64,000 bases of DNA from Candidatus Spyradenecus sp. (GTDB lineage Bacteria; Verrucomicrobiota; Verrucomicrobiia; Opitutales; UBA953), in the NCBI GenBank assembly GCA_045535075.1, contig JAZSKX010000018.1:288001-352000 (forward strand), written 5' to 3'. The translations under genes and the position numbers were made by a program. Below are positions 1-64,000 of the stretch, in pieces (position 1 is the first letter of the stretch; each line of letters starts with the position of its first letter). The notes under the pieces were generated by a model. It saw only the letters and a list, made by a program, of their open reading frames with translations, was not told the DNA's origin and did not search any database.

Positions 1-497
1 TCGACGTGTTCCCGCGACCATTCAAAAAATTCGGCATGGTCCGTCCGGAAATAAAGCATCGCCCCGGGACGGGAACGCTGCGCCCAAAGATCGAGCGTCG
101 AATTTTGGATAATCCGGTTTTTGTGGTGGCGTTTTTTGGGCCACGGATCGAGAAAAAGTAAAAACAGCTTATCGAGCGTAACCTTCGGCGGAAGCGCTTC
201 AAAAAATTCATCGGCATCCGCTTTAAGAAAGTCAACATTCGTAAGACCGGCAAGATCGCGTTTGCGCAAAGCGCGTTCGATTCGCTTCGTAATCAAATCG
301 ATTCCGATGCAATTCTCCTGCGGGAACGCGGCTCCGTAAGCGGCGAGAAAATGCCCGTGCCCGCACCCGATTTCGAGCGTCAGGCCGTTTAGCGAAAACC
401 CGCCGATAAGTTCTTCCGGGAGAAACGCCGCGATTTTTTTGCGCAGAGCGTCAATGCGCTCGGCACGATCCGCCATCGCTTTTTCGTAGTCCGACAT
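1..497 (-). CDS. trmB: tRNA (guanine-N7)-methyltransferase, 3' end runs off the window
   Basis: Not in the ORF track. Manual translation from ATG at 497 gives MSDYEK...LEIGCGHGHFL...FLDPWPKKRHHKNR...FRTDH, the TrmB signature motifs. Confidence 0.92.
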   Translation of the reverse strand, partial: MSDYEKAMADRAERIDALRKKIAAFLPEELIGGFSLNGLTLEIGCGHGHFLAAYGAAFPQENCIGIDLITKRIERALRKRDLAGLTNVDFLKADADEFFEALPPKVTLDKLFLLFLDPWPKKRHHKNRIIQNSTLDLWAQRSRPGAMLYFRTDHAEFFEWSREHV

Positions 498-500
498 GCT

Positions 501-806
501 TTACGCTTGCTCCGTGTGCGGCTTGAAAAATGCGGCGGTTTTCCCGACTTGGGAAACGCAAAACGTTCCCGCAGCGGCTTCGATTTCTGCACAAAGCTTC
601 ATAATGCGCTTGCGATCCGGAAAATGGAAACGCACTTTTACAAGGTCTTCGTGCTTAAAAACAATTTCAAGCTGTTTTACAATATCGCCGAGTTCGGTTT
701 CGCGCCCGATTTGGATTTTGGCATCGAGCGTTTGCGCCAGCCCGCGCAATTTTTTCTTTTCCGCTCCCGTGAGCGATTCGAAGGAAAATGAATTTTCGGA
801 ATTCAT
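501..806 (-). CDS. yhbY: YhbY/CRM-domain RNA-binding protein
   Basis: 101 aa; LTGAEKKKLRGLAQTL...IQIG...HEDLVKVRF...QVGKTAAFFK is the CRM pattern. Confidence 0.85.
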   Translation of the reverse strand: MNSENSFSFESLTGAEKKKLRGLAQTLDAKIQIGRETELGDIVKQLEIVFKHEDLVKVRFHFPDRKRIMKLCAEIEAAAGTFCVSQVGKTAAFFKPHTEQA

Positions 807-815
807 GGCAGAGGA

Positions 816-1937
816 TTAAGCGTCTTCGTCGTTGGTTTGTGCGGGAACGGCGTCGGAGCCGATTCCGAGGTCGGCGAGTTTATTGCGCATGTCCGCGTCC
901 TGAAGCGCATCGATAAGTTCGCCGATATCGCCGTCGATAATTTGCGGCAAGCCGTGAAGCGACAGCCCGATTCGATGGTCCGTCAAGCGGTTTTGCGGGA
1001 AATTATACGTACGAATACGCTCGGAGCGGTCGCCGCTTCCGATTTGGTTTTTCCGTTGTGTGGCGTATTTCAGATTTTCCTCCTCCTGTTTCTTTTCGTA
1101 AATACGGGAAAGAAGAATTTTCATCGCCTTCGCACGATTGCGCAACTGCGAGCGTTCGTCCGCACAATAAACCATAATTCCCGTCGGTTTGTGAATAATC
1201 TGCACGGCGGATTCGGTTTTATTGACGTGCTGCCCGCCGGCACCGGATGCACGGCAAACCGTCAGTTCGATATCTTCCGGCGCAATCTGAACGTCCACTT
1301 CTTCCGCTTCGGGAAGCACGGCAACCGTCGCCGCCGACGTGTGAACGCGCCCGGCGGCTTCCGTCGCGGGAACACGCTGAACGCGATGGACGCCGCTTTC
1401 GAATTTGAGCATCTTGAAAACATCCGTTCCCGTGATGAGCACGGAGACTTCCTTGAAACCGCCGACTTCCGACGGTGCGGAACTGAGCATTTCCCATTTC
1501 CATCCGCTTGTTTCGGCGTAACGCGTGTACATACGGAAAAGGTCTCCGGCAAAAAGCGAAGCTTCGTCCCCGCCCGTTCCCGCACGGATTTCGACAATCG
1601 TATTGCGGGAATCCGTCGGTTCCGGCGGAATCATCGCGAGCATCAGTTTTTCGTAAAGAGCCTCAAGTTCGGTTTCCAGCTGAGGAATTTCTTCTCGCGC
1701 GAGCTCACGCAATTCGTCGTCAATCTCAGCGTCGTCGCACATTGCGCGGTTGTCCTCAAGCGCTTTTTGTGTGGCGACACATTTTTCGTAAAGCGAAACG
1801 GTATTGCACAGGCGCGAGTGCTCGGCGGAAATTGTTCCCGCCTTGCGCTGGTCGCTATAAAAATCGGGCGCATTCATCAGCCCTTCAATTTCTGCAATAC
1901 GAATTTTTGCAGGTTGAATATCCGGAAGATCTTTCAT
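816..1937 (-). CDS. prfA: peptide chain release factor 1
   Basis: GGQ motif (GAGGQHVN) and RF1-specific PxT (RVPATE). Confidence 0.97.
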
Positions 1938-6247: not shown

Positions 6248-6268
6248 GTTCCCGCGGGAACGCCGCTC

Positions 6269-18385: not shown

Positions 18386-20037
18386 TTCGCCTTCGGAATC
18401 TCGACCGGTTCCGAAACGTTCTCGACAAAAAGCAGTCGGTTGTTTTCCGGCTCAAACCATGCTCGCATCAGGGTTCGAAATTCCGGATATTCCTCCGGAG
18501 TAATTTCCGTTTTCGTCAAATTTAAATGCTTGCGCACTCCCACCCACGCGCCGTCTTTTGTAACGTGAAACTGTACGCATCCGACAGAATTTTTCACTTC
18601 CGACAATCCCGGCATTTCTGCCAAAGCCCACCCCTCGGGAATTTGAATTGTGTAAACATAATTTTCGGAGAACGTTGTTCCCGTGGCAGGAATCCTCAGA
18701 TTCGCCTTCCTTTTTTCGGGAAGCGTTTCAAAATCCGTCGACGCAATTCCCTGCTTCGCGACGGGAACGCGCCAAAGCCACGTTCCGCTCCGAGGCGAGA
18801 ACTCGCGGCTGCATTCAAGGAGCAAAACTTTTTCGGGAAGCCACCGGCATTTATTACTCACCGGCTCGGACGCAATCAGTTGCTTCGCAACGCTGTCCGC
18901 ATTTTCCCGAATATCCGCACCGTCGAATTCTGCGGTTCCGCGGATTATTTCTTTTCCGTTCACAATCTCGCAACGCGCAGCAAGAGAAATTTTCTGTAGA
19001 ATATTTTCTTTCGGAACAACAGAAATGCGCTCCCCGGAAATCGACTCAATCCAAAACTCGTCGTCTTTCGGCGAATGAATAATTTTAAAGTCGTTCCCGA
19101 GACTTTCCGAAAGCATCGCCCAAAGCAAGCGCGCTTTTTCGTGAGGAGTCCCGTAAGCGGATTTTAAGACAGCGTCGGGCTCCCGCAAATCGCTTTCCAA
19201 AAGTAAAGTGCTCGGAATCGGAATGTTCGCAATTTGATCTCGAACAAAGCGAATAATCGCCGCCTTTTTCTCATCGTCCGACATCTCCTCGTCAAGCAAA
19301 AGACTTAACGCCAGTTTTGCTTCCGCTCCGAGTCTGACATTCTCGGTCGAACCAAAATCCCGCAAAGTCGCCGCCGGCATTCCCGGATAAATCACGGGAA
19401 CGGTTTTCTCCGCCGTAAAGTATTTTTCACGGGAACGCGCCGGCACATCAAAATATTCCGTAGACGAACCGTTGAAATTCATCACGAGGCGTTCGCACGG
19501 AAGCGGCATGTCCGCATATTCGTCAAAAACCATATTGCAGGTTGCGTCGGAGAAGACGGAATAATCGAGGAAGATCGTCGCTCCGGGTTCGAGCGCCGTA
19601 TGCGTTATAACGAGCTCCCGCAAAAAATTAAATGCCGGAGCATCAGCAGCGCAACGCGGCAAAACGGTATTAAACGCGTTTTCGGGAACATCGACGCGAG
19701 TACTGCCATCCGCCATAATCGTATATGCGGCATTGATCTTTATTCGCTGAAATTTCGGGTTATAAACAATAAATGTTTCCCCGCAAACTTCGTTCATTGC
19801 AAAAAGCGTATTTATGCGTAATTCCGTTTTTTGGCGAAACTCACAAGCCCCGTTTGCCTCAAAGAAATAATTTTTTTCAACGTTTTTATAAATGGCTTCG
19901 GGGACATCAGCACTCGGAAAGTTTTTCAAAATAATTCCTCCCGACGATTCGATTTCCGATTTTTCCTGAGCACAAAGCACTGCGGAAACGCCGACAAGCG
20001 CAAGCAAAGACAAAAAAGTTTTCCCGACAATATTCAT
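18382..20037 (-). CDS. secreted DUF3857/transglutaminase-like protein, probably non-catalytic
   Basis: Signal peptide; GETFIVYNP..VPENAFN..ELVITHTALE; YGTPHEKA where Cys is expected; C-terminal VKNSVG...ITPEEYPEFR. Confidence 0.7.
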   Translation of the reverse strand: MNIVGKTFLSLLALVGVSAVLCAQEKSEIESSGGIILKNFPSADVPEAIYKNVEKNYFFEANGACEFRQKTELRINTLFAMNEVCGETFIVYNPKFQRIKINAAYTIMADGSTRVDVPENAFNTVLPRCAADAPAFNFLRELVITHTALEPGATIFLDYSVFSDATCNMVFDEYADMPLPCERLVMNFNGSSTEYFDVPARSREKYFTAEKTVPVIYPGMPAATLRDFGSTENVRLGAEAKLALSLLLDEEMSDDEKKAAIIRFVRDQIANIPIPSTLLLESDLREPDAVLKSAYGTPHEKARLLWAMLSESLGNDFKIIHSPKDDEFWIESISGERISVVPKENILQKISLAARCEIVNGKEIIRGTAEFDGADIRENADSVAKQLIASEPVSNKCRWLPEKVLLLECSREFSPRSGTWLWRVPVAKQGIASTDFETLPEKRKANLRIPATGTTFSENYVYTIQIPEGWALAEMPGLSEVKNSVGCVQFHVTKDGAWVGVRKHLNLTKTEITPEEYPEFRTLMRAWFEPENNRLLFVENVSEPVEIPKAK

Positions 20038-20055
20038 GGATAAAAATTTAATTTG

Positions 20056-22005
20056 TTATTGTTTTTTAATGACAATCGGAGACTTTGAAAATTTTTCGTA
20101 AGCACGCAGAGCATCGCGCACTTCGCCCCATTCGCCGGCCTCGTAAACACGTTTATTCATTTGTAATTTTTGCGAATACGAAAGCGATCGCGCATTTGTT
20201 TCAAGCTTACCCGTGAAGCTTGCAGCCGTTCCCGTCACATTTTCCTTTTGAACCTGAACAAGCGCGTCAAAGGGAAGTTCAATTTTTTCCGAAAACTCAG
20301 CCGTACGGGAACAGGAATCCCTAAACGCGTAGCGCCGTTCGTCAATTTTTGTATTTATTTTTTCATAACGCCGCCCCTGAGCGAAAACATTTTTAAAGAC
20401 GATCGGCTCATAAATCAAAATACCTTCCGCGCTTGCCGCATAATTCGGGATTTTAAATTTCGCTTTGAGTTTCAACGGCATTTCGAGATAGCTCCGCCAA
20501 TCGTTCCCAAGTTCGAGACTTTCGATTTCAACATTCGGAGCAATCGCATAAATCTCCCGCTCGATTTTCTGAACCCAGTCTTCGACATAGCCTTCGCAGT
20601 AGGCGCGACGGATCCTTGCATCTGTCTGTCCTTCCGCCTCAAGCACATATTCCGCGTGAAGCGTACCGTCCGCATCCAGTTTCCCCGTAACATTCACGCG
20701 CAAGTAATGATTTTCCGCGGGAGCGACAGGCGTTTTACACAAATCCGAGCCTTCGGGAACGCCCGGCAAATAATGCTGTTGAGATTCTGCGGAAGACCAA
20801 AGTTCCCGCACAAACGGAACCCAAGTCGGATCAAGCGGCTCCCACTTGCCGGCGACTTTCACAAGCGCAACACTGTGGTTAAAATGGTCTGCGGGAAGGG
20901 ATTCGATACGCGATCCCGCCATCGTCATTGCCGGGCAAGCCTCAAAACCTGCCATTCGCAACATTGAAATCAGCAACGCCGCCTTGTCTTTGCAAACGCC
21001 GCAACGATCCGTAAAATTCATATCTGTAGGGTGAAGCGTATAGCCTTCCCCTTTCCCCATCGAAATCCCCGAATAACGCATGTTGTCGGCGACCCAATGA
21101 GTCAGACGCGCAATTTTTTCCCGATCGGTTTTCGCTCCCGCGATAATCTCATCAACCTTGCGTTGCGCATTCGGAGTCGGCAAAAAACTTCCGAAGTCCT
21201 CGTTAACACGATGAAACCAAAGAGACTTCTCCCGCCACGAACGCGTTGTTGTCAGCTGGAGCTTTGGAGCGACATCAAATAAATCCGCCATGTTGTCTTC
21301 TTTCTGAAACGGAAGTATATCCTTCGAAACAAAACGATATTCGGTTTTCCCGTCATCAAGAAAATTTACTTCCGGAACAACGCTTCCCTGGTAAAACTTG
21401 TACTGAAGGGGCTTGCGAATCGCCACGGAATAAACTTTCTCGCATACGGGAGCATCTACACTCCAGAACGGAACGATATCATAAAACTCGCCTCGCATCG
21501 GAGGGATAAATTTTTCCTCTTCCGCATTTCCGCTACCTGCTCCGGAGCCCCCCGAAGCACCGTCGAGCAAGGCGTATGTAAATCCCTTTTTATCAATTCC
21601 GTATTCGAGAACATCTCCTTTTTCGAGACGTCCGACTTCAAGCATAATTTGCCTTGCGCCCCAGTAAATTGCACGTGCCGGAGCCGCATAATCACAAGCA
21701 TTCGCGCAATCGAGCTCCCGAACGCTTCCGTCCGGCTTAATAATTCTCGCAAACGCGAATTCGGCAAACGCCGTAAGCGGATCGTAATCATACTTAACAA
21801 TACGATTCGCCAATGCGCCTTTCTCGTTGTTGATTTTTATTTTTTTGAAAAGGCGAAAAATTCCGCTCCCGTTGTCGGCAACATCGACATGGATTTTGTC
21901 GCTAAGCACGATGTAATCCGCCTTATTCGCAAGCTCATCAAATTCCGTTCCCGCAAAAGCGGAGATTCCAAACAGTCCGACACTCCAAAGCAATTTCCGA
22001 ATCAT
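20056..22005 (-). CDS. secreted DUF3857 + transglutaminase-core protein
   Basis: Triad GVCKDKA / HFNH / LDPTW; signal peptide. Confidence 0.82.
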   Translation of the reverse strand: MIRKLLWSVGLFGISAFAGTEFDELANKADYIVLSDKIHVDVADNGSGIFRLFKKIKINNEKGALANRIVKYDYDPLTAFAEFAFARIIKPDGSVRELDCANACDYAAPARAIYWGARQIMLEVGRLEKGDVLEYGIDKKGFTYALLDGASGGSGAGSGNAEEEKFIPPMRGEFYDIVPFWSVDAPVCEKVYSVAIRKPLQYKFYQGSVVPEVNFLDDGKTEYRFVSKDILPFQKEDNMADLFDVAPKLQLTTTRSWREKSLWFHRVNEDFGSFLPTPNAQRKVDEIIAGAKTDREKIARLTHWVADNMRYSGISMGKGEGYTLHPTDMNFTDRCGVCKDKAALLISMLRMAGFEACPAMTMAGSRIESLPADHFNHSVALVKVAGKWEPLDPTWVPFVRELWSSAESQQHYLPGVPEGSDLCKTPVAPAENHYLRVNVTGKLDADGTLHAEYVLEAEGQTDARIRRAYCEGYVEDWVQKIEREIYAIAPNVEIESLELGNDWRSYLEMPLKLKAKFKIPNYAASAEGILIYEPIVFKNVFAQGRRYEKINTKIDERRYAFRDSCSRTAEFSEKIELPFDALVQVQKENVTGTAASFTGKLETNARSLSYSQKLQMNKRVYEAGEWGEVRDALRAYEKFSKSPIVIKKQ

Positions 22006-22111
22006 GCGTTGATTCTAAAAAACTCCGGAGACGTCGTGCGATTTAATTTTGAAAAGAAAATTCTTCCCCTTCTCTTCTCTCCGGCTACATTTGGCCCCTA
22101 AAATTAAGGAA

Positions 22112-22155
22112 CAACAAAAAACACGAAGGCCGCTCCCGACGGGAACGGCCTTTGT
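22112..22155 (-). terminator. terminator of the alpha operon, stem made of the abundant motif and its variant
   Basis: Minus strand reads ACAAAGGCCGTTCCC-GTC-GGGAGCGGCCTTCGT-GTTTTTTG. Confidence 0.8.
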
Positions 22156-22178
22156 CGTCTAGATTTAGCGAATAATAC

Positions 22179-22682
22179 TTATTCTGCTGCTACAGGAGCC
22201 GGAGCTTCCTCTGCAACGGGAGCTGCCTCCGCGGGAACTTCTTCCGCTTTAGCTTTCTTCGCCGGAGCTTTTTTCGGAGCCTTCTTGTAGCCTTCATCGT
22301 CCGCAGCGATCAGCTCAATGAGTGCCATCGGCGTAGCGTCGCCGATACGCGGAATCGCGAGCTTGTAAATGCGGGTATAGCCGCCGTTGCGGCTCAAGAA
22401 TTCCTGTGCGCGCTTGTTGAAAAGCACGGCAACGGGTTCTTCCTGACGAACCTTGGCGAGAGCAAGGCGATAGTAGTGAAGTTTCTTCACCTTGTCATCG
22501 GTTTGAGCCGCCTTCTTCGCAAGCGTAACAATCTTTTCCGCGAACGGGCGGAGAGCCTTTGCTTTAGCAAGCGTGGTTTGGATACGGCCATGAAGGAAAA
22601 GCGCTCCCGCCAGAGATGCCATGAGAGCCTGGCGGTGTTCTTTCTTAACGCCGAGTTGATAACGGTGTTTGCAGTGACGCAT
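22179..22682 (-). CDS. rplQ: 50S ribosomal protein L17 with Ala/Pro/Glu tail
   Basis: MRHCK...HGRIQTTLAKAK...RNGGYTRI. Confidence 0.97.
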   Translation of the reverse strand: MRHCKHRYQLGVKKEHRQALMASLAGALFLHGRIQTTLAKAKALRPFAEKIVTLAKKAAQTDDKVKKLHYYRLALAKVRQEEPVAVLFNKRAQEFLSRNGGYTRIYKLAIPRIGDATPMALIELIAADDEGYKKAPKKAPAKKAKAEEVPAEAAPVAEEAPAPVAAE

Positions 22683-22716
22683 GATGTTTTAAATTTCTAT
22701 TTTTAATGGTTGAGGA

Positions 22717-23853
22717 TTACTCTTCGTCTTCGTTGCCGTCAACGGTCGGACCGAGATCTTCGGTTGCATATTCTTCGCCGATTTCATCGTCTTCCTCAGA
22801 GATTTCGGGAAGAGCACCGGAAGCGCGCATATCGGCAAGCGCCTTGTGATGCGCAGCAATAATATCGCGATCGATGAGACGTTCGTCGAGCTTCATGCCA
22901 AGCGAAAGGCCGAGCTGTTCAAGTTTCGCCTTAATTTCGTTAAGCGATTTCTTCCCGAAATTGCGATACTTAAGCATTTCTGCTTCCGACTTGAGAGCGA
23001 GCTCGCCCACAGTCGTAATATTCGCGTTATTCAAGCAGTTCGCAGCACGCACCGAAAGTTCGATTTCGTTAACGCTCATATTGAGGAGTTTGCGAAGGCG
23101 ATTTTGTTCTTCGCTGACTTCCTTGCCTTCTGTTTCGAATTCGATTTTTTCATCCGAAACAGAATCAAAGACATCAAGGTGATGACGGAGAATCGCCGCC
23201 GCATCCTTGAGTGCTTCATCCGGAGAAGTCCGTCCGTCCGTCCAAATTTCAAGAATCAGCTTATCGTAGTCAGTCATTTGTCCGACGCGCGTATTTTCGA
23301 CGCTGTAGCGAACCAAACGAACCGGAGAGAAGAGTGAGTCGATAGCGATAACGCCAATCGCTTGGTCGGGAGCTTTGTTTCCTTCCGCCGGGCACCAGGA
23401 GCGACCGACGCGAACGCAAAGCTCCATGCGGAGACGACGTTTCTTGTTGATGGTGCAAATAACCTGATCCGGATTAATAATTTCAAGATCGGAAACGAGC
23501 TGAATATCCTGCGCCGTAACCGGTCCTTCGCGATCAACGTCGATAAGAACGTTGAAAGTGTCGCTCTTGTGCGCACGGATGATAACCTTTTTGAGATTTA
23601 AGACAACATCCGTAACATCTTCAACGACATCGTCGATGGACTGAAATTCATGGTCCACTCCATCAATCTTGACAGAGCAGATTGCTGCGCCCTCGATAGA
23701 GCTGAGGAGCACGCGACGGAGCGCATTGCCCATCGTTTGCCCATAGCCCGTCTCAAACGGCTCTGCAATGAATTTTGCGTAAGTATCAGTCGATACCGTT
23801 TCATCTTTTTTGAGATGTTTCGGTAATTCAAATTTCCCAAGACGTTTTGGCAT
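22717..23853 (-). CDS. rpoA: RNA polymerase alpha subunit
   Basis: EPFETGYGQTMGNALRRVLLSS; ELSVRAANCL; NFGKKSLNEI. Confidence 0.98.
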   Translation of the reverse strand: MPKRLGKFELPKHLKKDETVSTDTYAKFIAEPFETGYGQTMGNALRRVLLSSIEGAAICSVKIDGVDHEFQSIDDVVEDVTDVVLNLKKVIIRAHKSDTFNVLIDVDREGPVTAQDIQLVSDLEIINPDQVICTINKKRRLRMELCVRVGRSWCPAEGNKAPDQAIGVIAIDSLFSPVRLVRYSVENTRVGQMTDYDKLILEIWTDGRTSPDEALKDAAAILRHHLDVFDSVSDEKIEFETEGKEVSEEQNRLRKLLNMSVNEIELSVRAANCLNNANITTVGELALKSEAEMLKYRNFGKKSLNEIKAKLEQLGLSLGMKLDERLIDRDIIAAHHKALADMRASGALPEISEEDDEIGEEYATEDLGPTVDGNEDEE

Positions 23854-23888
23854 TTTCGGTATCTTCTAATTAGATGATTAAAAGTGGA

Positions 23889-24497
23889 TTAGCGGCTGTA
23901 GAATTCAACGATGAGTTGGACGTTGATGTCCTGAGCCATTTCTTCACGAGCCGGTTTGCGATCAACCGTACCTTCAAGCGTTCCCGCCGTGAGTGTGAGC
24001 CACGCCGGAACCGGACGCGTCTGATTTTCTTCCACTCCGCGAGTTGCGAGTTGTTTTGAGGAAGTACGATTGCGGACTTCAATCTTGTCGCCGACGCTGC
24101 AGCAGAAGCTCGGAATGTCGACTTTATGTCCGTTTACGCAGATATGTCCGTGACCGACCAACTGGCGAGCGGCACGGCGCGTATTCGCAAAGCCCAAGAG
24201 ATAGACGACGCTATCCAGGCGCATTTCAAGGAGCGTAAGGAAGTTTTCACCGACAACGCCACCCATGCGCTTTGCGCGGGCGTACGTAAGACGGAACTGC
24301 TTTTCGCCGAGACCATACATGAAGCGGAGCTTCTGCTTCTCATTCAGGCCGATGGAATATTCCGAAGCCTTACGACGAAGCGTGGGGCCGTGAACTCCCG
24401 GAGGATACGGCTTGCGTTCCTCTGCCTTACAGGTCGGAAGAATATTCTGACCAAAACGGCGATTTAACTTACTGGTGGGTCCTGTGTATCGTGACAT
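23889..24497 (-). CDS. rpsD: 30S ribosomal protein S4
   Basis: MSRYTGP...EKQKLR..LEMRLD...IVEFYSR. Confidence 0.98.
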   Translation of the reverse strand: MSRYTGPTSKLNRRFGQNILPTCKAEERKPYPPGVHGPTLRRKASEYSIGLNEKQKLRFMYGLGEKQFRLTYARAKRMGGVVGENFLTLLEMRLDSVVYLLGFANTRRAARQLVGHGHICVNGHKVDIPSFCCSVGDKIEVRNRTSSKQLATRGVEENQTRPVPAWLTLTAGTLEGTVDRKPAREEMAQDINVQLIVEFYSR

Positions 24498-24621
24498 TTC
24501 TGTATTATTTTTGGCGGCTTAATCGACTGCCCGGGTTGCCATTGCCGGACAGGAATAGAAAAGAGCGAGAAAGCCTGCAAAAACCGAAAAGGAATTTGCA
24601 GGCAAAAATCCGTTATTCCAA

Positions 24622-25095
24622 TTAAACGCGACGGCGCTTCGGCGGACGGCATCCGTTATGCGGAACCGGCGTAACGTCCGTAATCGAAAGAACATTCAAT
24701 CCAAGCGATTGAAGTGCGCGGATCGCAGAGTCGCGTCCCATTCCCGGACCGCGAACTTTGACGATAACGTCTTTCAAACCATGCGACATCGCAACGCGAG
24801 CGGCATCCTGACAAACAACCTGCGCGGCAAAAGCCGTAGACTTACGGGAACCGCGGAAATTGCATTGCCCGGACGAAGAGCGGGAAATCACGTTCCCGTT
24901 CGTGTCGCAAAAAGTAATTTTCGTATTATTGAAAGTTGCAAGAATATTGCAGACACCGGTCGTAATATTCTTAGAGCCTTTGGCTCGGCGCACCTTGATT
25001 TCTTCCAAACCTTCGGCAAGCAAATCTTTCGCCGTGATTTCTTTCTTTTCAGGAGCTGCGGGAGCAACTTCTTTCTTGACTTCTTCTTGACTCAT
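24622..25095 (-). CDS. rpsK: 30S ribosomal protein S11 (N-terminal extension)
   Basis: [32 protein letters not shown]. Confidence 0.98.
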
Positions 25096-25115
25096 TGAAA
25101 GTAGCTTTCTGTTAA

Positions 25116-37637: not shown

Positions 37638-39788
37638 TTACGAGCGAGCCGGAGCACGGGAAGCCGTTTCTACGATTTCCTTGAGCACATTCGCGGGAAC
37701 CTGTTCAAAGTGATCCGGTTCCATCGTATAGGAAGCACGACCCTTCGAAAGCGAGCGAACGTCCGTCGCATAACCGAACATCGTCTGGAGCGGAACCATC
37801 GCATTGATGGTGCAAACACCGTTCTTGGTCTCCATGTTCTGAATCTGACCGCGACGGCGATTCAAGTCGCCCATGATATCTCCTTGGTATTCTTCCGGCG
37901 TAACGACTTCAACCTTGGTAATCGGCTCGAGGAGAATCGGAGCAGCCTTCGCCATTGCATCCTTAAGAGCAAAGATACCTGCCATTTTGAACGCCATTTC
38001 GGAGGAGTCGACTTCGTGGAACGAACCAAATACGATGCGCGCTTTGAAGTCGATGACCGGATATCCGGCAATCGTCCCGTTGTTCGCCGCTTCCTGAATC
38101 CCTTCGATCGTCGGCTTGATATATTCCTTCGGGATAACGCCACCGACGATTTCGTTGATGACTTCAATGCCCTTGCCCGGATTCGGTTCGATTTCGATTT
38201 CGGCATGACCGTATTGACCACGACCGCCGGACTGACGAACGAACTTTCCGATACCGCGAGAATTGCCCGTGATCGTTTCACGGTAGGAAATCTGCGGACG
38301 ACCGGATTTTGCTTCGACCTTAAATTCGCGACGCAGACGGTCGACGATAATATCGAGGTGAAGCTCGCCCATTCCGGAGATAATGGTTTGCCCCGTTTCC
38401 TGGTCGGAAGAAACACGGAAAGTCGGGTCTTCCTGAGCAAGGCGTTGGAGACCGATGGAAAGTTTTTCCTGGTCAGCTTTCGTCGCAGGCTCAATCGCCA
38501 TCGAGATAACCGGTTCCGGGAACGACGGCGGTTCGAGGATAATATCTTCTTCGCGCGTGCAAAGCGTATCACCCGTTACGATTTCTTTCGGACCGATAAC
38601 AGCGCAAATATCTCCGGAGTAAGCCGTATCAATTTCTTCGCGATCCATCGCCTTCATAATCATGAGGCGGGAAACACGTTCCGTCTTGCGGGTACGCGGA
38701 TTGTAAAGAGCGTCACCTTTCTTAAGCGTTCCGCGATAGACGCGGAAGAAGACGAGCTGTCCGACATACGGGTCAGACCACAGCTTGAAGCAAAGTCCGA
38801 TCGGCTTTGCATTATCGTCCGGTTCGACTCCGATTTCGGTTTCTCCATCGTCCTTAAACGCCTTCATCGGCGGAAGGTCGAGCGGAGACGGCAAGTAATC
38901 GACAACGCAGTCGAGAACCATCTGAACGCCTTTATTCTTGAAAGAGGAACCCGGGATAACACCGACGAATTCAAGCGAAAGCGTTGCCTTACGGATAGCG
39001 ACACGAAGTTCGTCTGCGGAAATTTCTTCGCCGCCGAGATATTTTTCGGCAATCGTATCGTCAAAGTCGGAAACTGCTTCGATAAGACCTTCGCGATACT
39101 TGTCATAGTCCGCCTTCATATCTGCGGGAACATCCGTTACCGTGTAGCGCATCCCCTTCGGGTCGGAATCATCATAAACGTATGCACAGCCCTTGACGAG
39201 GTCAACAAGACCCGCAAAGGTGTCACCGGCTCCGATCGGGATGTAAAGCGGGTGTGCGTTCCCGCGAAGTTTTTCACGAATTCCGTTAACGGCATTGAAG
39301 AAATCAGCACCCGTGCGGTCCATCTTATTGATGTAAGCAATGCGCGGGACGCTGTACTTGTTCATCTGACGCCAAACGGTTTCAGATTGCGGCTGAACAC
39401 CGGCAACCGCACAGAAAACGGCAACAGCTCCGTCAAGCACGCGAAGCGAGCGTTCGACTTCCGCCGTAAAGTCCACGTGACCGGGCGTGTCGATAACATT
39501 CAAGCGGTGCGGAATTTTTGCAAACGGACCGTCAGCAACCGTCCATCCGCAGGAAACGGCAGCCGAGGTAATCGTGATACCGCGTTCCTGTTCCTGCTCC
39601 ATCCAGTCGGTCGTAGCAGCGCCTTCGTGAACTTCACCCGTTTTGTGGATGACGCCCGCGTAGAAGAGAATACGTTCGGAAGTCGTGGTTTTACCGGCGT
39701 CAATGTGAGCGGCAATACCGAAGTTACGTGTGTATTCCAACGGAGCTTTGCGCCCGGAGGAGTTTTTGCTGGAAAGTGCGGCGGCCAT
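37638..39788 (-). CDS. fusA: elongation factor G
   Basis: AHIDAGKTT, RGITI, DTPGHVDF, NKMD, GMGELHL. Confidence 0.98.
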   Translation of the reverse strand: MAAALSSKNSSGRKAPLEYTRNFGIAAHIDAGKTTTSERILFYAGVIHKTGEVHEGAATTDWMEQEQERGITITSAAVSCGWTVADGPFAKIPHRLNVIDTPGHVDFTAEVERSLRVLDGAVAVFCAVAGVQPQSETVWRQMNKYSVPRIAYINKMDRTGADFFNAVNGIREKLRGNAHPLYIPIGAGDTFAGLVDLVKGCAYVYDDSDPKGMRYTVTDVPADMKADYDKYREGLIEAVSDFDDTIAEKYLGGEEISADELRVAIRKATLSLEFVGVIPGSSFKNKGVQMVLDCVVDYLPSPLDLPPMKAFKDDGETEIGVEPDDNAKPIGLCFKLWSDPYVGQLVFFRVYRGTLKKGDALYNPRTRKTERVSRLMIMKAMDREEIDTAYSGDICAVIGPKEIVTGDTLCTREEDIILEPPSFPEPVISMAIEPATKADQEKLSIGLQRLAQEDPTFRVSSDQETGQTIISGMGELHLDIIVDRLRREFKVEAKSGRPQISYRETITGNSRGIGKFVRQSGGRGQYGHAEIEIEPNPGKGIEVINEIVGGVIPKEYIKPTIEGIQEAANNGTIAGYPVIDFKARIVFGSFHEVDSSEMAFKMAGIFALKDAMAKAAPILLEPITKVEVVTPEEYQGDIMGDLNRRRGQIQNMETKNGVCTINAMVPLQTMFGYATDVRSLSKGRASYTMEPDHFEQVPANVLKEIVETASRAPARS

Positions 39789-39819
39789 TGTAAATATGCT
39801 CGACTTTTTCGGTTAAAAA

Positions 39820-40299
39820 TTAGTTACCCCAGCGAAGGTGCGCGAAAGCGCGGTTCGCCTGAGCCATTTTGTGAGTTTCTTCGCGTTTTTTAACAACCGT
39901 TCCCGTGTTGTTGTACGCATCAATGAATTCGGCGGCCAACGATTCCGTCATCGGCTGCCCCTTACGCGCAGAAGCCGCATTGACGAGCCAACGGAAGGCC
40001 ATGCTTGTCTGACGCTCATGGGAAATTTCAACCGGAACCTGATAGGTTGCCCCGCCGACGCGGCGGCTTTTAACTTCCAATTTCGGGCGGCAATTTTCCA
40101 ATGCGCCGAGGAGAAGTTCCATCGGATCACCCTTTTCAAGTTTTTCGCTAACGCGCTCAATCGCGCCATAGACAATGCGCTGAGCAACCGTCTTTTTGCC
40201 GTTTTTCATAACGACATTGATGAGCTGGCTCACAAGCGGGCTGTTATAACGTGCATCCGGTTGGTGCACTTTTTTCGTTGCTTTACGACGACGTGACAT
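39820..40299 (-). CDS. rpsG: 30S ribosomal protein S7
   Basis: [24 protein letters not shown]. Confidence 0.98.
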
Positions 40300-42188: not shown

Positions 42189-44015
42189 ATGAAAGCAATC
42201 AGAAACATCGCAATCATCGCGCACGTCGACCACGGGAAAACAACGCTTGTCGATAAAATCATCCGACAGGCGAAAATGTTTCGCGACAATCAAACGATGC
42301 AGGAATGCTTTCTCGACAGCAACGATCTCGAACGGGAACGCGGAATTACGATTCTTTCAAAAAATATCTCCATTCAGTATAGGGGCGTAAAAATTAACGT
42401 CATTGACACTCCCGGACACAGCGACTTCGGAGGACAAGTCGAACGCGTGCTCAACCTCACCGACGGTGTTATTTTGCTCGTCGACTCCGCCGAAGGGCCG
42501 ATGCCGCAAACGCGTTTCGTCCTCGAAAAAGCTCTGCGCCTCGGCAAAAAAGCAATTGTTGTCGTCAATAAAATCGACAAACCGGACGCACGTCCGACGG
42601 AAGTCGTCGATGCCGTTTTCGACCTGTTTTGTGAACTTAATGCGAATGAAGATCAGCTCGACTTCCCCCTGCTCTACGCGAGCGGCCGCGACGGTTGGGC
42701 GGTGAAAGATTTGGAAAACGACCCGCGCAATTCGATTGTCCCGCTGCTGGATGCCGTCATCGAACACGTTCCCGCGCCGGCACTCGTCGAAGGTCCGCTC
42801 CAAATGCAAATTGCGACCTTGGATTATTCGGACTACGTCGGGCGTATCGGCATCGGGCGCGTCTCCCGGGGCGAGATTAAACTCAATTCGCCGGTCGTCG
42901 TTCTTGACCGCGACGGGAACGCCCGCAACGCACAAATCAAGCAGCTTTTCACCTTCGAAGGCTTAGAGCGCCAAGACTGTGAAAGCGTCAAATGCGGCGA
43001 CATCTGCGGCGTCGTCGGGATCGAAGATATTTATGTTTCGGACACGATTGCCGACGCGGAAACTCCGGAAATGCTCCCGCCGATTGCAATCGACGAACCG
43101 ACAATTTCGATGATCTTCCGCGTGAACGATTCGCCGTTTTTCGGCAAAGACGGCAAATTCGTCACGGCGCGCCATATCCGCAACCGTTTAATGAAAGAAT
43201 CACAGAGCGACGTTGCTCTGCGCGTCTGCGAAGCCGGGAACGGCGGCGAAATGTTCGAAGTCTCCGGCCGCGGCGTTTTGCATCTCGCAATTCTGATTGA
43301 AACAATGCGACGGGAAGGCTTCGAGCTTGCAGTCTCGCGCCCTCGCGTCATTACCAAAATTGTGGACGGCGTTTTGCACGATCCGATGGAGCAGCTGACA
43401 ATTGACGTTCCCGAGGAATCCGCCGGGAACGTAATCACGCTCGTCGGACAACGTCGCGGCGAAATGACGCACATGGAGACGCGCGGGAATCGCCAGCTCA
43501 TTGAATTTACGATTCCCACGCGCGGAATCATCGGCTTGCGCTCGAAAATTCTCACCGCATCGGCAGGCGAAGCGATTGTTTCGCATCGTTTTGATCATTA
43601 TGCGCCGTTCAAAGGCGACATTCCCGCGCGCATTAACGGCTCGATGGTTTCACTCGGGCAAGGAAAAGCCGTCGCTTACGCCATCGATGCGCTTCAACTG
43701 CGCGGCACGTTTTTTATCGATCCGGGAGAAGAAACTTACGAAGGCATGGTTGTCGGCGAACATTGCAAAGACAAGGATTTACCGGTGAATTTGCAAAAAG
43801 GCAAAGAATTGACGAACATGCGCGCAGCGGGAAGCGACCGGAAAATGAAAATTGCTCCCGCGACGAAACTTTCATTGGAACAGGCCTTGGAATACATCGC
43901 CGACGACGAGCTCGTCGAGGTCACGCCGCATTTCATCCGGCTTCGCAAAATTTATCTGACGGAAGAAGGTCGTAAACGAGCAGCCAAAGCGCTCAAAGAC
44001 GGCGTTCTCGCATAA
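42189..44015 (+). CDS. typA: translational GTPase TypA/BipA
   Basis: AHVDHGKTTLVD; LHLAILIE.MRREG; ELVEVTP..IRLRK. Confidence 0.97.
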   Translation: MKAIRNIAIIAHVDHGKTTLVDKIIRQAKMFRDNQTMQECFLDSNDLERERGITILSKNISIQYRGVKINVIDTPGHSDFGGQVERVLNLTDGVILLVDSAEGPMPQTRFVLEKALRLGKKAIVVVNKIDKPDARPTEVVDAVFDLFCELNANEDQLDFPLLYASGRDGWAVKDLENDPRNSIVPLLDAVIEHVPAPALVEGPLQMQIATLDYSDYVGRIGIGRVSRGEIKLNSPVVVLDRDGNARNAQIKQLFTFEGLERQDCESVKCGDICGVVGIEDIYVSDTIADAETPEMLPPIAIDEPTISMIFRVNDSPFFGKDGKFVTARHIRNRLMKESQSDVALRVCEAGNGGEMFEVSGRGVLHLAILIETMRREGFELAVSRPRVITKIVDGVLHDPMEQLTIDVPEESAGNVITLVGQRRGEMTHMETRGNRQLIEFTIPTRGIIGLRSKILTASAGEAIVSHRFDHYAPFKGDIPARINGSMVSLGQGKAVAYAIDALQLRGTFFIDPGEETYEGMVVGEHCKDKDLPVNLQKGKELTNMRAAGSDRKMKIAPATKLSLEQALEYIADDELVEVTPHFIRLRKIYLTEEGRKRAAKALKDGVLA

Positions 44016-53256: not shown

Positions 53257-53299
53257 AAAAAAGCGTTCCCGTGAAATAAATCACGGGAACGCTTCTTCT
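53257..53299. terminator. bidirectional terminator formed by an inverted motif pair
   Basis: Perfect 14-bp arms AAGCGTTCCCGTGA-AATAAA-TCACGGGAACGCTT between convergent genes. Confidence 0.85.
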
Positions 53300-55557: not shown

Positions 55558-55603
55558 GGCGTCTCCGCGGGAACGATTGTCCTGCGGAGGCGCCATCATT
55601 TTT
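55558..55603 (+). terminator. 15-bp hairpin followed by T-tract
   Basis: GGCGTCTCCGCGGGA-ACGATTG-TCCTGCGGAGGCGCC-ATCATTTTT; G-U pairs favour the + strand. Confidence 0.65.
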
Positions 55604-55728: not shown

Positions 55729-56538
55729 ATGAAAAACATAAAATTTCTCTCTTGCCTTACTTTCGCACTTTCGGGAGTAACTTCCGGCGTTTTTGCGGCT
55801 GACGCGACATTAAGCTATACGGATGCCTTCGGGATCGCCCAAAACCAATCGGAATCCTTAGGGTATTTCATTTTGGAAGAAAACGCCCGCGACGTCGTTT
55901 TCAACACGGGAACGAACTACCTTTTCAGTAAAGACCTATATCTCAACGCCGGACGCATTGAAAATCTTGAACTCATCGCGACGGGAAACGAAGACGACGC
56001 TCGCGTTTACAATAAGACGACGATCGACGGGAACGTCAAAATTTCGGGCGCAACCGGTTGCTTCTATTCTTACGGCGGAACGATTGAAAGCGGGGCACAC
56101 TTCACCCTAAACGGAGGGCGATTTGATTTCGCCAATTCGAGCTTACACAAATGGAAAATCGGAGAAGAAACGGGAACGCGCGCATTAATTTCAGGAACGG
56201 GAACCGTCACCATTCGTAATACGACATTGAATGGCGAAGCCTTTACTTCGTGGCTACAGCTGGATTTCGCGAACTATGATGTTTTAAAAAAGACGAAAAC
56301 GCTGAGTCTTGTCGACGCCGGAACTATCGTCGGTTCCGGATTAAATTTTCGCGATATCTCCGTCTTTGTCGACGGCTGGCAAGTTTTTGACTACACGGCA
56401 AGTCTGGACTGGAATTCCGACAGCGTAAATTTCGGCAAAATCTCAATCACGCATCCGATTCCGGAGCCGTCTGCTTTCGGCATGCTTGCCGGATTATGCG
56501 CCTTAGCGTTTGCGGGAACGCGCCGCCGTCACCAATAA
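55729..56538 (+). CDS. PEP-CTERM sorting-domain surface protein
   Basis: Signal peptide; C-terminal IPEPSAFGMLAGLCALAFAGTRRRHQ. Confidence 0.9.
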   Translation: MKNIKFLSCLTFALSGVTSGVFAADATLSYTDAFGIAQNQSESLGYFILEENARDVVFNTGTNYLFSKDLYLNAGRIENLELIATGNEDDARVYNKTTIDGNVKISGATGCFYSYGGTIESGAHFTLNGGRFDFANSSLHKWKIGEETGTRALISGTGTVTIRNTTLNGEAFTSWLQLDFANYDVLKKTKTLSLVDAGTIVGSGLNFRDISVFVDGWQVFDYTASLDWNSDSVNFGKISITHPIPEPSAFGMLAGLCALAFAGTRRRHQ

Positions 56539-58880: not shown

Positions 58881-59018
58881 GAGAAGAAAGCCTAGCGTTT
58901 TTTTCGCGACAGGCAAAAAAATGTTCCCGCAAGAAAATCCCGCGGGAACGATTTTTCTGTTTCCAAAGAAACTTTCTTCGGAGAAGCCGACCAAACTTAT
59001 CAGCTTCTAAGCCACAAA

Positions 59019-61595: not shown

Positions 61596-61796
61596 TTTCG
61601 GGGGAAGCTGAACGATTAAAACGCCGTAAAAAAATGCCGCGCTTCCCGTCAAAACGCAACGCCGAAAGACAAATTAAACACATCGCCCGCCAAACTTCCG
61701 ACGACCCTGAAATTAAAGATGCGGCGGAAGAAAAAAACACCGGCAAGCGAAACTTAGTTTTGCGTTCCCGCGAGCGGCGCTGTTTGATTTCCGTCT

Positions 61797-63587
61797 GTGA
61801 AAAAAATAATTTCTTCCGCGATTCTAATGGCATCTATCGTTTTCCCCAGCCCGGACTCTTACGGGCAGAATGTTCCCGCGCAACCCTCGCCTGCCGCCTC
61901 CAACCCGCAACCGACAGCCGGCGGCGACTTCATCAACCTGCTCTTGCTTGCGGACCTTGCGCTGTATTCATACCCGGACGACATTCGAGACTGCGCCGGG
62001 CGGCTTGTCGAACGCGCAGAAGCCATTCCCGATCCCGCGTTGCGGCGCCTCATTGTTTTCTCGCTCTCAAAAATCATTAACGCCCCCGAGAAAGCGGAGG
62101 AAGCGCGGCGGGAACACATGACAAAAATCGGGCAGCATTTTTTTGAAGTCGCCGCAACCGCGCGCAAGGGCAATCGCGACGAAGACGCGCTCGCTGCCGT
62201 ACAAATCGCGCTCAAATGCGCTCCCGGCAACGCTGAAGCCCGCATGCTTTTTGCTTCGCTCATTGAGCCGAAAGCCGCGCTCCAAACACTTCATTACGGC
62301 ATTCGATTTCTTGATTTAACTACGGATGTCGCGCCGGCTTATTTCAATCGCTACTTCGGCGCGCTTGCCGATTTGCAACAGGACCGCATCGCCGCCAAAC
62401 AGGCCCTGGCGCTACTCGACGGCAAAAAATCCAACGGCAAACCGGCGCTCCCGCCCGCCGTCCGAACCGTCGTCGCCAATCATGCGGCAATGGCGCTCTT
62501 TTGGCTCGGCGAATACGACGCGGCACTGAAAATAATTGAAAGCGAAAAAATCTCCGAAACGCAGCAGGGACTGATTCTGAAATCACGCTGCCTTTTCGAC
62601 CTGCGGCGTTCCCGTGAGGCAATCGCGTTGCTCAGCGGCAAGGTTAATGATTTCCCCGCGTCGAAACGCGACGTTATTTTGTCCCAACTGGCGCATTTCC
62701 ACCAATACCTGGGAGACTTGGACGCCGCTTTGGAAACCGCGAACCGCCGCATCGAAGAGAATCCGACCGCATCGCAACCGTACCTTCATCGCCTTTACCT
62801 GCTCAATAAGCTCGGGAAAAAAGACGCCTTCAACGAAGAACTTGCCGCCGTTTTTAAAACTTTTTCGGCACAACAATCCGCGTTGATTTCGTTGGCAAAT
62901 TTCTCCGCAGAAAACGGGAATCCCGCAATCGCGGAAACCTGCACGGCAATTGCCGTCGAAAAAAAGTTTCCGCCGAACATTTTTGTCGCCGCAACAATCG
63001 AAGCTTTCGTTACCGCAAAAATGCCGGAACAGGCAATCGACACTTATCAGAAAATTTCCAAGGCCTCGCCGAAAATGCTCGAAGGCATGGAATCCGCAAC
63101 AACGGCAATTCTTGCCGCCGCCTACACGCTCGCTGCCGAAAAAGCAGGCGACGATGCGGAAAATCGGACGCGTTTTGAAAGCCACGCCGATTTGTTGCTC
63201 GGACAATTCCTCGACGACACAACTCTCTCCCCGGAAAACTATATTTCCGTGAGTGCGCTTTTTGAACGCATCGGGCAAAACGAAACGGCGTTGAAAGTCG
63301 CTCGCTTCGGGCTCGCCGCGTTCCCGTGGCACGCACAGCTCCGCGCCAACACGATTATCCTGCGAATTCGTTGCGGGCAAATTGCGGGAACACGCGAGCA
63401 GACGCCGCTCTCAAAAGAAATTCGCGTCCTCGCCGGAATGCGTCGCCCGAACCCGAAAGTTTGGAGCATTGTCGCGCAATGGCTTGAAGCGACAAACCCG
63501 CTCTCGCAAAGCGAAATCGACACACTCAGGAAAATCGTCGCTCCGCTCGTCCGCGATGATTTGAGCTTGGAAATGGTCCGCGAATAG
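61797..63587 (+). CDS. secreted TPR-like protein
   Basis: GTG start, signal peptide, Ala-rich helical repeats. Confidence 0.75.
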   Translation: MKKIISSAILMASIVFPSPDSYGQNVPAQPSPAASNPQPTAGGDFINLLLLADLALYSYPDDIRDCAGRLVERAEAIPDPALRRLIVFSLSKIINAPEKAEEARREHMTKIGQHFFEVAATARKGNRDEDALAAVQIALKCAPGNAEARMLFASLIEPKAALQTLHYGIRFLDLTTDVAPAYFNRYFGALADLQQDRIAAKQALALLDGKKSNGKPALPPAVRTVVANHAAMALFWLGEYDAALKIIESEKISETQQGLILKSRCLFDLRRSREAIALLSGKVNDFPASKRDVILSQLAHFHQYLGDLDAALETANRRIEENPTASQPYLHRLYLLNKLGKKDAFNEELAAVFKTFSAQQSALISLANFSAENGNPAIAETCTAIAVEKKFPPNIFVAATIEAFVTAKMPEQAIDTYQKISKASPKMLEGMESATTAILAAAYTLAAEKAGDDAENRTRFESHADLLLGQFLDDTTLSPENYISVSALFERIGQNETALKVARFGLAAFPWHAQLRANTIILRIRCGQIAGTREQTPLSKEIRVLAGMRRPNPKVWSIVAQWLEATNPLSQSEIDTLRKIVAPLVRDDLSLEMVRE

Positions 63588-63640
63588 GAAACAAAGCCGT
63601 TCGCTCCCGCTGCTTGCGACTAACTTAATCCCTCCCGCTC

Positions 63641-64000
63641 GTGGACAATTCCGTCAACCTCACATTCTTTTCGCATCCGGAAATCGTACTTGATTATGCG
63701 CGGGCAGCGATAAATGTCGGGCTGTGGAATTCCGAAAAACAACTCTACAAAACATTCATTGCCCGGGACGCCGAAATCCTCGAACTCGGCGCCGGCGCCG
63801 GGCGCGTCTCCCTCGGGCTTGTACGCGAAGGATATTCAAAAATCACCGTTACGGATTTCGCACCGCCGATGGTTGAAATCGCACAAACGATTTTTGAAGA
63901 CGCCGCAATTCCGGCAAATGCAAGCATTCGTTTCGCCGTCGAGGACGCCACGCAGATTTCGTTCCCGCAAAACAGCTTCGACGCCGTCATCTTCGCATTC
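63641..64000 (+). CDS. class I SAM-dependent methyltransferase, runs off the window
   Basis: Manual translation from GTG 63641: ILELGAGAGRV...TDFAPPMVE...EDAT...SFDAVIF. Confidence 0.8.
   Translation, partial: MDNSVNLTFFSHPEIVLDYARAAINVGLWNSEKQLYKTFIARDAEILELGAGAGRVSLGLVREGYSKITVTDFAPPMVEIAQTIFEDAAIPANASIRFAVEDATQISFPQNSFDAVIFAF

Follow-up and report, generated by a model that had tools for sequence, protein, structure and literature searches.

CGGGAAC, a dense genus-specific DNA word of Candidatus Spyradenecus and a candidate uptake sequence in the Verrucomicrobiota

What process would fill a bacterial chromosome with thousands of copies of one short, non-palindromic word? The question is raised by a 64-kb stretch of DNA from Candidatus Spyradenecus sp. 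(hereafter the window, G000:C5:288001-352000, where G000 is the genome to which it belongs), in which the heptamer CGGGAAC and its complement GTTCCCG, together referred to here as the word, recur from end to end on both strands, most often within the 9-mer RCGGGAACG. A preliminary description of the window had proposed that the word is a self-DNA recognition signal of natural competence, or else a binding or methylation site under genome-wide drive. To our knowledge, DNA uptake sequences have been described from only two proteobacterial families. These, the DNA uptake sequence (DUS) of the Neisseriaceae and the uptake signal sequence (USS) of the Pasteurellaceae, are treated as the whole class in a recent account (10.1101/2025.10.24.684340). 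We found no published report of the word, nor of uptake sequences in Verrucomicrobiota, and the literature on the genus, judged by titles and the opening lines of abstracts, concerns naming or abundance. The results presented below establish that CGGGAAC with its flanks is a genus-specific genomic word of Candidatus Spyradenecus.

Abundance, anatomy and distribution of the word

The window holds 188 copies of the word, 92 forward and 96 reverse, against an expectation of 12.76 (standard deviation (sd) 3.89, maximum 23) from dinucleotide-preserving shuffles, none of which (0/100) reached 188, giving an excess of about 15-fold. The local tallies of the preliminary description, 16 copies at 1-2850 and 11 at 59,000-61,600, are exact, and the 30-45-fold excess that it proposed holds for the densest stretches under a null of 50% G+C (GC) content but not for the window as a whole. 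Across the complete assembly of G000 (1,949,087 bp in 18 contigs, 52% GC), CGGGAAC occurs 6,528 times (3,169 forward, 3,359 reverse), or 3.35 times per kb. The longer forms CGGGAACG, GCGGGAACG and ACGGGAACG number 5,159, 3,244 and 1,266, respectively, and the 4,510 copies of RCGGGAACG alone make up 2.08% of all bases.

This abundance is not explained by short-range composition or by codon choice. Genome-wide, GCGGGAACG exceeds expectation 182-, 53-, 40- and 17-fold at Markov orders 0, 1, 2 and 3, respectively; a maximum-order Markov expectation was abandoned because the word dominates its own sub-words, and low-order and codon-aware nulls were used instead. Genes were called with an iterative codon model, which returned 1,423 genes covering 86% of the genome and recovered the ribosomal operon correctly. 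Two codon-aware nulls, each run in 20 replicates, were applied to coding sequence (CDS), where CGGGAAC has 5,426 copies and RCGGGAACG 3,634. When synonymous codons were exchanged within genes, the counts fell to 880 (sd 20) and 337, respectively, and when the order of codons was shuffled they fell to 369 (sd 22) and 82. Enrichment therefore persists under both Markov and codon correction.

A logo built over all copies confines the information to positions -3 to +9, approximately YY-R-CGGGAAC-G-C, with no more than 0.02 bits at any position farther out. The flank preferences named in the preliminary description are real, with position -1 occupied by G (62% of copies) or A (24%) and position +8 mostly by G (79%). 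Because the flanks beyond about 10 bp carry no information, we consider this a bare word and not an element resembling repetitive extragenic palindromes (REP) or miniature inverted-repeat transposable elements (MITE), which would be extended and mostly intergenic; CDS accounts for 83% of copies. Almost no deviation is tolerated in the inner core, C-G-G-G-A, whose one-off variants are at background level. Variants at the outer positions are enriched, with ratios of observed to expected of 24.6 for G to A at -1, 8.1 for AAC to AGC, 11.6 for the final G to A and 9.3 for the final G to T; one-off forms are thus common, as had been claimed, with GCGGGAGCG alone present 515 times against 63 expected. 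Spacing of the copies is approximately Poisson, with a coefficient of variation of 1.09 and a median gap of 208 against 205 expected.

The distribution of the word is confined to a single genus. All 19 of the 19 Candidatus Spyradenecus genomes are enriched (340-5,581 copies of the 9-mer); the 102 genomes from four sister genera of the family hold at most 176 copies each, near the reversed-word control. In an even sample of the phylum (301 genomes, 148 genera), enrichment is seen in just two genomes, both from Candidatus Spyradenecus, and the next best carries 326 copies in 3.8 Mb against 98 for its control. Placement of the window in a Verrucomicrobiota lineage is itself borne out by SecY, for which the closest named records are Candidatus Spyradenecus sp. 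(96% identity) and Opitutales/'Opitutia' metagenome-assembled genomes. Close relatives carry the same word: de novo k-mer ranking in 31-98 kb samples of 11 congeners returned it with the same flank preferences at 47-62% GC, for example at 5.1 per kb in G009 (47% GC) and 3.0 per kb in G018 (62% GC). This constancy from 47% to 62% GC indicates that the word is neither compositional nor divided into dialects.

No comparable word turned up in the sampled sister genera. What looked like a dialect in one of them, CGGGTACG in G019, was rejected: a single locus contains 42 of the 46 copies, which with one exception share a strand and are separated by gaps that are mostly multiples of 3, pointing to one giant repeat-protein gene. 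This giant gene (G019:C2:1-20000), with 41 GTACCCG copies on one strand, mimics a genomic word in small samples; other local repeats lead the k-mer tables of G013 (CTTTAATCT/AGATTAAAG, 38 copies) and G014 (GGTTGGTGGTG-type runs, about 34), and these may be arrays or repeat-protein genes.

A second word of the same general kind emerged from the phylum sample, where G428, a genome of the same class, holds 1,803 copies of TCGTTAGGC against 70 for the reversed control. The sequence is not enriched in G183, a family-mate of G428 (60 copies against 79 for the control), and G000 has only 9 copies against 52. Since TCGTTAGGC is abundant in G428 and scarce in G000, at least two Verrucomicrobiota lineages have evolved different words independently.

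Coding imprint, maintenance and decay

The density of the word is higher in intergenic DNA (3.99 per kb, 46% GC) than in CDS (3.24 per kb, 53% GC), and within CDS all six frames are occupied, in agreement with the preliminary description. Two frames are favoured: GCG-GGA-ACG, which encodes Ala-Gly-Thr (plus Thr-Gly-Thr) and accounts for 1,682 copies, and, from the other strand, GTT-CCC-GCN, which encodes Val-Pro followed by Ala or Val and accounts for 1,394. The imprint on the G000 proteome is pronounced, as VPA (5.0-fold) and AGT (4.9-fold) are the tripeptides most over-represented relative to amino-acid composition, and RER, TGT, VPV and RSR, each a translation of the word, are all among the top nine. 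Moreover, the word, as GCGGGAACG, encodes 82% of AGT tripeptides, whereas codon usage predicts 7%. Among orthologous sites without the word in a given relative, the peptide differs at 14/34 in G001, 13/33 in G013, 12/22 in G004, 7/24 in G014 and 4/9 in G009. The word is a DNA-level phenomenon that overrides coding, and the process behind it acts on DNA sequence and not on proteins.

Abundance within the genus is uneven, with about 750 copies of the 9-mer in each of G001, G002 and G013 and 340 in G014. In a SecY tree, a single-gene phylogeny of 15 of the 18 congeners (G016-G018 left out) and six outgroups, the word-poor genomes nest inside a word-rich clade, ((G009,G008),(G014,(G004,(G000,(G013,G002,G001))))), with supports of 82-100%, and all eight species of the other clade are word-rich. 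Two independent reductions of the word within the genus are the most parsimonious explanation; a single loss followed by two regains is a possible alternative.

Orthologous sites were compared over 20 kb of the window, using the G000 sites as reference and the retention of 7-mers as baseline. G009, word-rich and the most distant of the genomes compared (76% identity), retained 14/23 sites (p=1.5e-6) against a baseline of 16%, with private sites at 5/19, and G004, also word-rich (77% identity), retained 18/45 (p=0.003) against 20.5%, with 12/30 private. The word-poor but closer genomes G001 and G013 (both 81% identity) each retained 12/47 against 26%, with 1/13 and 3/15 private, respectively, and the word-poorest, G014 (78% identity), retained 0/25 (p=0.005) against 21%, with 1/1 private. 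Retention between distant word-rich species is thus 2-4 times the neutral baseline, and, because private sites are almost nil in them, the word-poor genomes lose sites without gaining any. Protein constraint cannot explain better retention in the more distant genome, since the same G000 sites were compared throughout. Over 6,049 columns aligned in six genomes, 11 G000 sites are gone in G001, and 9 of these 11 are present in G004 or G009; five sites are common to G000 and G009 alone, reflecting either several losses or the parallel creation of copies where the word arises readily. The number of one-off 8-mers relative to perfect ones follows the same division, with ratios of 1.0-1.25 in word-rich genomes, 4.6 in G001/G002/G013, 9.1 in G014 and 18 in sister genera. 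Above-neutral retention in word-rich species, together with decay in two lineages, indicates an active DNA-level drive that has weakened twice, and we regard a real, drive-maintained and genus-specific word as very nearly certain.

An earlier turnover test on the ribosomal operon (1/22 sites kept versus L002, and no more than 2,095 aligned bases for the word-rich L007) was superseded, the comparison locus being word-poor. Positions 40001-60000 of the window map to at least six contigs in G001/G013, at a DNA identity of 76-91% although SecY is 96% identical; rearrangement of gene order within the genus is extensive.

The longest word-free or word-poor stretches of G000 are horizontally acquired DNA in all cases listed (Table 1), and prophages and restriction islands are depleted of the word about 4-fold relative to the genome-wide 3.35 per kb. 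A viral contig collection yielded 24 stretches with a terminator-type pair of copies, with a maximum of 0.77 copies per kb, the two copies used for selection included.

Candidate readers and competing explanations

What, then, reads the word? An uptake-sequence mechanism is the best-fitting explanation, and we assign it a probability of roughly 0.5. A surface receptor of the type IV pilus/ComEC machinery would prefer word-bearing DNA, the DNA taken up would recombine into the chromosome with the aid of DprA and ComM, and biased uptake combined with recombination would spread word-creating variants and repair broken copies, a form of molecular drive. At the DNA level, such a process would create and maintain the word by point substitution, copies would accumulate wherever coding permits, newly acquired DNA would start without the word, and inverted pairs would later be co-opted as terminator stems. 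Features reported for DUS and USS include frame bias, a rough doubling of the tripeptides that they specify, absence from genes without homologues and inverted repeats at terminators (PMC2817400; 10.1101/2025.10.24.684340), and every sequence-level hallmark of these systems that we examined is present here except dialects. We infer that the DNA-uptake machinery may well be the reader of the word. The competence signal of the preliminary description keeps its sequence-level hallmarks, and each of the refuting tests named there came out in its favour; as a functional claim it is drawn by analogy, and what it lacks are dialects, ComEA and co-variation with competence genes.

The gene content of G000 is compatible with such a reader in part. 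ComEC is present in 41/41 and DprA in 40/41 genomes of the order, which says little because both are near-universal there. G000 also encodes ComM, Pfam-confirmed pilus genes (a secretin, two PilB-type ATPases and PilC) and seven or eight prepilins, comprising a four-gene operon at C1:259.1-262.6 kb and orphans on C5, C16 and C2. Between the two ATPases, and outside the gene calls, lies a shorter third match to the T2SSE family, a putative PilT by its size. Thus, most of the competence and pilus genes to which the preliminary description pointed are in place, but ComEA was not found in G000, where the only strong HHH_3 match is Tex, and co-occurrence with the word is missing.

That absence is one of several observations that weigh against an uptake mechanism. 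ComEC and DprA are found in word-free genera and in reduced genomes of 0.8-0.9 Mb, and the sister genera that are free of the word are no poorer in competence genes, which show no co-variation with it. Both decaying lineages have kept ComEC, DprA and ComM, for which stop-free open frames were checked, together with the pilin operon, the secretin operon and the ATPase/PilC cluster, and loss of a known pilus or competence gene was rejected as the cause of decay. Dialects, typical of DUS and USS, were not seen among the 11 congeners, G000 and the sampled sister genera. Finally, the density of the word is 2.5-3 times that corresponding to the published DUS/USS copies per genome (1,471, 765 and 1,892; PMC2817400).

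The candidate for a receptor is a genus-restricted orphan prepilin of 141 aa (G000 C5:99,026-99,451), a restriction that rests on limited evidence, namely that the gene is intact in all 4/4 congeners sampled and was not found in the single sister-genus genome sampled, G019. The protein falls into 12 clusters among 5.8 billion proteins. Its predicted model has a predicted local distance difference test (pLDDT) score of 72, and Foldseek returned 0 matches at E<=0.001 and weak rows to FimU and PilW. A likeness to ComP was rejected, as a search against sequences of solved structures matches the N-terminal pilin helix only. The orphan prepilin is also kept where the word decays.

Other secretion and competence genes vary within the order. 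A second secretin, a third GspE-type ATPase and an extra prepilin cluster occur in G014 and G018 and in neither G000 nor G003, and G019 has a second secretin and third ATPase with prepilin clusters of its own; the presence or absence of this second secretin/ATPase system does not follow the word. The 0.8-0.9 Mb genomes G027 and G031 still encode ComEC and DprA, so that either these proteins have a non-transformation role or transformation matters even there.

A genome-wide reader unrelated to uptake, such as a repair or nicking enzyme with biased gene conversion, a HIP1-like modification or a chromosome-organising protein, remains a serious rival because none of the competence genes varies together with the word, whether genera are compared or the decaying lineages are considered, and because ComEA was not found in G000; we rate it unlikely, if far from negligible. 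The core C-G-G-G-A without one-off excess, as if near-copies were efficiently converted, lends it further weight, as does the example of the highly iterated palindrome HIP1, which is linked to two methylases (PMC13756078). However, HIP1 itself may act in transformation (PMC13756078), so that this explanation is not cleanly separate from uptake. The word, moreover, is non-palindromic, and transition (deamination-type) variants show no selective depletion among the one-offs, unlike the expectation for a drive based on deamination repair.

No enzyme family examined tracks the word. Very-short-patch repair and Dnd phosphorothioation were rejected as drivers, Vsr being present in 1/19 genomes of the genus (not G000) and DndC over cut-off in 0/19. 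Methylases were rejected for their patchiness across the genus: C5 occurs in 10/19 genomes, N6_N4 in 16/19 (not G000) and N6_Mtase in 15/19 (not the very word-rich G003 and G018), and an Eco57I-type enzyme is over cut-off in 2/5 genomes, with the G000 copy located in a word-poor island. Perfect co-occurrence with one methyltransferase, which the preliminary description had regarded as pointing away from uptake, is therefore seen for none of these four families. A little less probable is a reading in which the word is no uptake tag but the trace of an undescribed sequence-specific system, one that would turn near-copies into the word throughout the genome by biased gene conversion or repair and that lineages could lose, as the two decaying ones would have done.

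Far less probable is that the word serves mainly as a building block of terminator hairpins, or as another RNA-level signal, with the dispersed copies as spill-over. One arrangement is strongly preferred genome-wide: pairs of the form GTTCCCG...CGGGAAC within 30 nt number 228 (148 expected) and are most frequent at 19 nt, whereas the opposite arrangement, CGGGAAC...GTTCCCG, is depleted, with 62 close pairs. With spacers of 6-16 nt there are 170 pairs of the preferred form, of which 125 are intergenic according to crude longest-open-reading-frame (ORF) calls, and the typical intergenic pair, AAAAAAGC-GTTCCCG-loop-CGGGAAC-GCTTTTTT, lies 20-30 nt beyond the end of an ORF. A strong intrinsic terminator, taken to be a hairpin with a folding energy of <=-10 kcal/mol and a T-run after it, no more than 70 nt from the stop codon, is predicted at 313/1,422 genes, and 173/313 (55%) carry the word and 113/313 a pair. 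The hairpins are also very stable. The pair at 53265-53290, between convergent genes at 51560-53230(+) and 53326-55365(-), belongs to the top-ranked terminator-like site in a scan of 44-64 kb, and the RNA of this site (53257-53298) folds at -26.5 kcal/mol on the plus and -31.2 kcal/mol on the minus strand (z about -8; 0/200 shuffles equally stable); all five of the five strongest sites in the scan contain the word or a one-off variant. Nevertheless, pairs account for only about 340 of 6,528 copies, and terminators are therefore a secondary use of the word. The same secondary use is described for DUS and USS (10.1101/2025.10.24.684340). Single copies cannot form a hairpin, the 5,426 copies in CDS are spread over six frames, and the inverted pair within typA/bipA (Table 1) indicates that pairs are not limited to terminators.

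A polar recombination or segregation signal is scarcely credible. Chi, FtsK orienting polar sequences (KOPS) and architecture imparting sequences (AIMS) are, like the word, over-represented, short, non-palindromic chromosomal words, but they are strongly co-oriented with replication and far less dense. Word polarity is weakly correlated with GC skew (86 windows of 20 kb, r=0.44), and this correlation partly tracks gene strand and the word's own excess of G. With replichores assigned by GC skew only, in an assembly of 18 contigs, the strand bias is tiny, at 1,573 forward and 1,498 reverse copies (51% forward) where the skew is positive and 1,232 and 1,482 (45%) where it is negative. The skew is negative throughout the 64-kb window, and strand counts there are nonetheless equal. 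The interleaving of both orientations noted in the preliminary description extends from the window to the genome, without polarity of the replichore type.

Least tenable is the view that the enrichment arises artefactually from base composition, from codon usage, from a repeated peptide or from a small REP/MITE-like mobile element, a view to which the dominance of the AGT/TGT and VPA/VPV frames might have pointed, but which the tests run refute, as Markov and codon-aware nulls fall short 6- to 45-fold, the word fills six frames and intergenic DNA with flanks that carry no information, and it is identical at 47-62% GC and not found in sister genera of similar GC.

Features of the window and comparison with known systems

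Individual features of the window and the word-poor islands of G000 are collected in Table 1. The low-density zone coincides with the ribosomal-protein/secY/rpoA/fusA cluster, as placed by gene calls and Pfam. The crude longest-ORF gene caller was dropped in favour of the codon-model caller because it chose antisense ORFs, for example opposite fusA. Such frames can be long: a stop-free antisense ORF at 37629-39893(+) (754 aa) exceeds fusA on the opposite strand (37638-39788(-), 716 aa), and another at 837-2642(+) lies over prfA (816-1937(-)). Scans of the window found no tRNA genes and no Rfam matches at gathering threshold, and no 16S site was found in the G000 assembly.

Table 1. Positions of word-related features in the window and of word-poor stretches elsewhere in G000 (locations without a contig label are window positions)
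Feature	Location	Strand	Detail
Dispersed word field, 188 copies	1..64000	both	119 of the 188 in the full RCGGGAACG form
Two abutting copies, palindrome GTTCCCGCGGGAAC	6248..6261		8 nt past 3' end of corA (6269-7471, minus)
Low-density zone, 5-8 copies per 4 kb vs 10-17 elsewhere	20001..40000	-	bin counts
Rarer opposite arrangement CGGGAAC-N9-GTTCCCG	37083..37105		in ORF of ribosomal-protein cluster; -20.7 kcal/mol
Inverted pair, 10-nt spacer, inside typA/bipA (42144-44015)	43407..43430		Pfam, pair search
Bidirectional terminator-like inverted pair GCGTTCCCG, 12-nt spacer, CGGGAACGC	53257..53298	both	flanking A-run and T-run
Strong terminator-like hairpin, 15 pairs, one GCGGGAACG in stem	55558..55594	+	terminator scan
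GCGGGAACG as Ala-Gly-Thr, example of favoured frame	56510..56518	+	PEP-CTERM-type tail of ORF 55729-56538
Terminator-like hairpin GTTCCCG-N13-CGGGAAC	58923..58949		flanking A/T runs; -19.8 kcal/mol, z -3.7
Fused-helicase island, 45% GC	C5:229-235 kb		1.13 copies per kb; includes 5.4-kb word-free stretch
Mu-like prophage	C8:20-31.5 kb		0.96 copies per kb
NgoBV-type restriction island, 42% GC	C12:44-49.5 kb		0.55 copies per kb
Type I restriction-modification locus	C12:72-78 kb		1.83 copies per kb; includes 3.4-kb word-free stretch
Mu-like prophage	C16:183-219 kb		0.80 and 0.87 copies per kb
3.7-kb contig with ParB-like gene	C18		0 copies

Some neighbouring genes deserve mention in their own right. 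The ORF at 55729-56538 ends in a PEP-CTERM-type sorting tail (PEP, hydrophobic stretch, Arg run; 56456-56538), and stretches of about 75 nt resembling this tail recur often in G001, G004, G009 and G013, a similarity that indicates a large paralogous family of putative exosortase-type substrates. The Mu-like prophages encode Mu Gam, a MuB-like AAA protein, Mu Gp27, a terminase and a Mu portal; in one of them an ADP-ribosyltransferase-exoenzyme-like domain (E 6.5e-8) lies in a protein of 487 aa, and a YadA-head-repeat protein of 912 aa is encoded in another. On the minus strand of C5:229517-234343, a 1,609-aa protein combines a DEAD/Helicase_C module with a fused UvrD-type helicase and looks like an acquired defence-type gene.

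If the word is indeed read by the uptake machinery, it would represent a third, independently evolved case of uptake sequences, found in a gut genus of Verrucomicrobiota that is uncultured, and would make the tagging of self DNA a recurrent phenomenon instead of a proteobacterial oddity. It would be among the densest such cases, with the 9-mer making up 2% of the genome, and one in which the proteome is bent more strongly than in published cases. The two nested lineages that are losing the word, alongside relatives that keep it, provide a natural experiment, and a contrast of gene sets across word-rich and decaying lineages could reveal the reader and whether such words always signify transformation. 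The word is also a near-perfect marker that could serve to assign contigs to the genus, to flag foreign DNA and to design DNA that the genus might take up.

The closest parallels are the two known uptake sequences. The DUS of the Neisseriaceae, which is bound by the minor pilin ComP, is likewise a short non-palindromic word, restricted to its taxon and present in thousands of copies on both strands, with stringently conserved positions, a share of about 2% of the chromosome, biased gene frames, terminator pairs and scarcity in acquired DNA (10.1101/2025.10.24.684340; PMC2397512). The word described here differs in the proportion of copies in CDS, 83% compared with 34.5% in N. meningitidis (PMC2817400). 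It also differs in its sequence, its phylum and its density, which is about three times higher, and no homologue of ComP was identified, leaving the orphan prepilin as the candidate. The USS of the Pasteurellaceae has AT-rich flanking segments, in contrast to the flanks of the word, which are flat beyond -3/+9. With its predicted receptor ComN/PpdA, the USS has a 9-bp core whose positions are of graded importance (PMC12616744), and it shares with the word the enrichment of tripeptides and absence from genes without homologues (PMC2817400) as well as terminator pairs (10.1101/2025.10.24.684340). However, tripeptide enrichment is 3-5-fold here compared with about 2-fold for the USS (PMC2817400).

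Two further words complete the comparison. HIP1 (GCGATCGC) of cyanobacteria is comparable in density, lineage-wide and conserved, and has been proposed to aid transformation, but it is palindromic, quasi-periodic and associated with two methylases (PMC13756078), whereas the word described here is non-palindromic, Poisson-spaced and tracked by none of the methylases examined. Nearest in taxonomy is the TCGTTAGGC/GCCTAACGA 9-mer of G428, a strand-symmetric word of the same kind and from the same phylum, which is unrelated in sequence, belongs to another order and reaches about 0.6 copies per kb compared with 1.7-3.3 per kb here.

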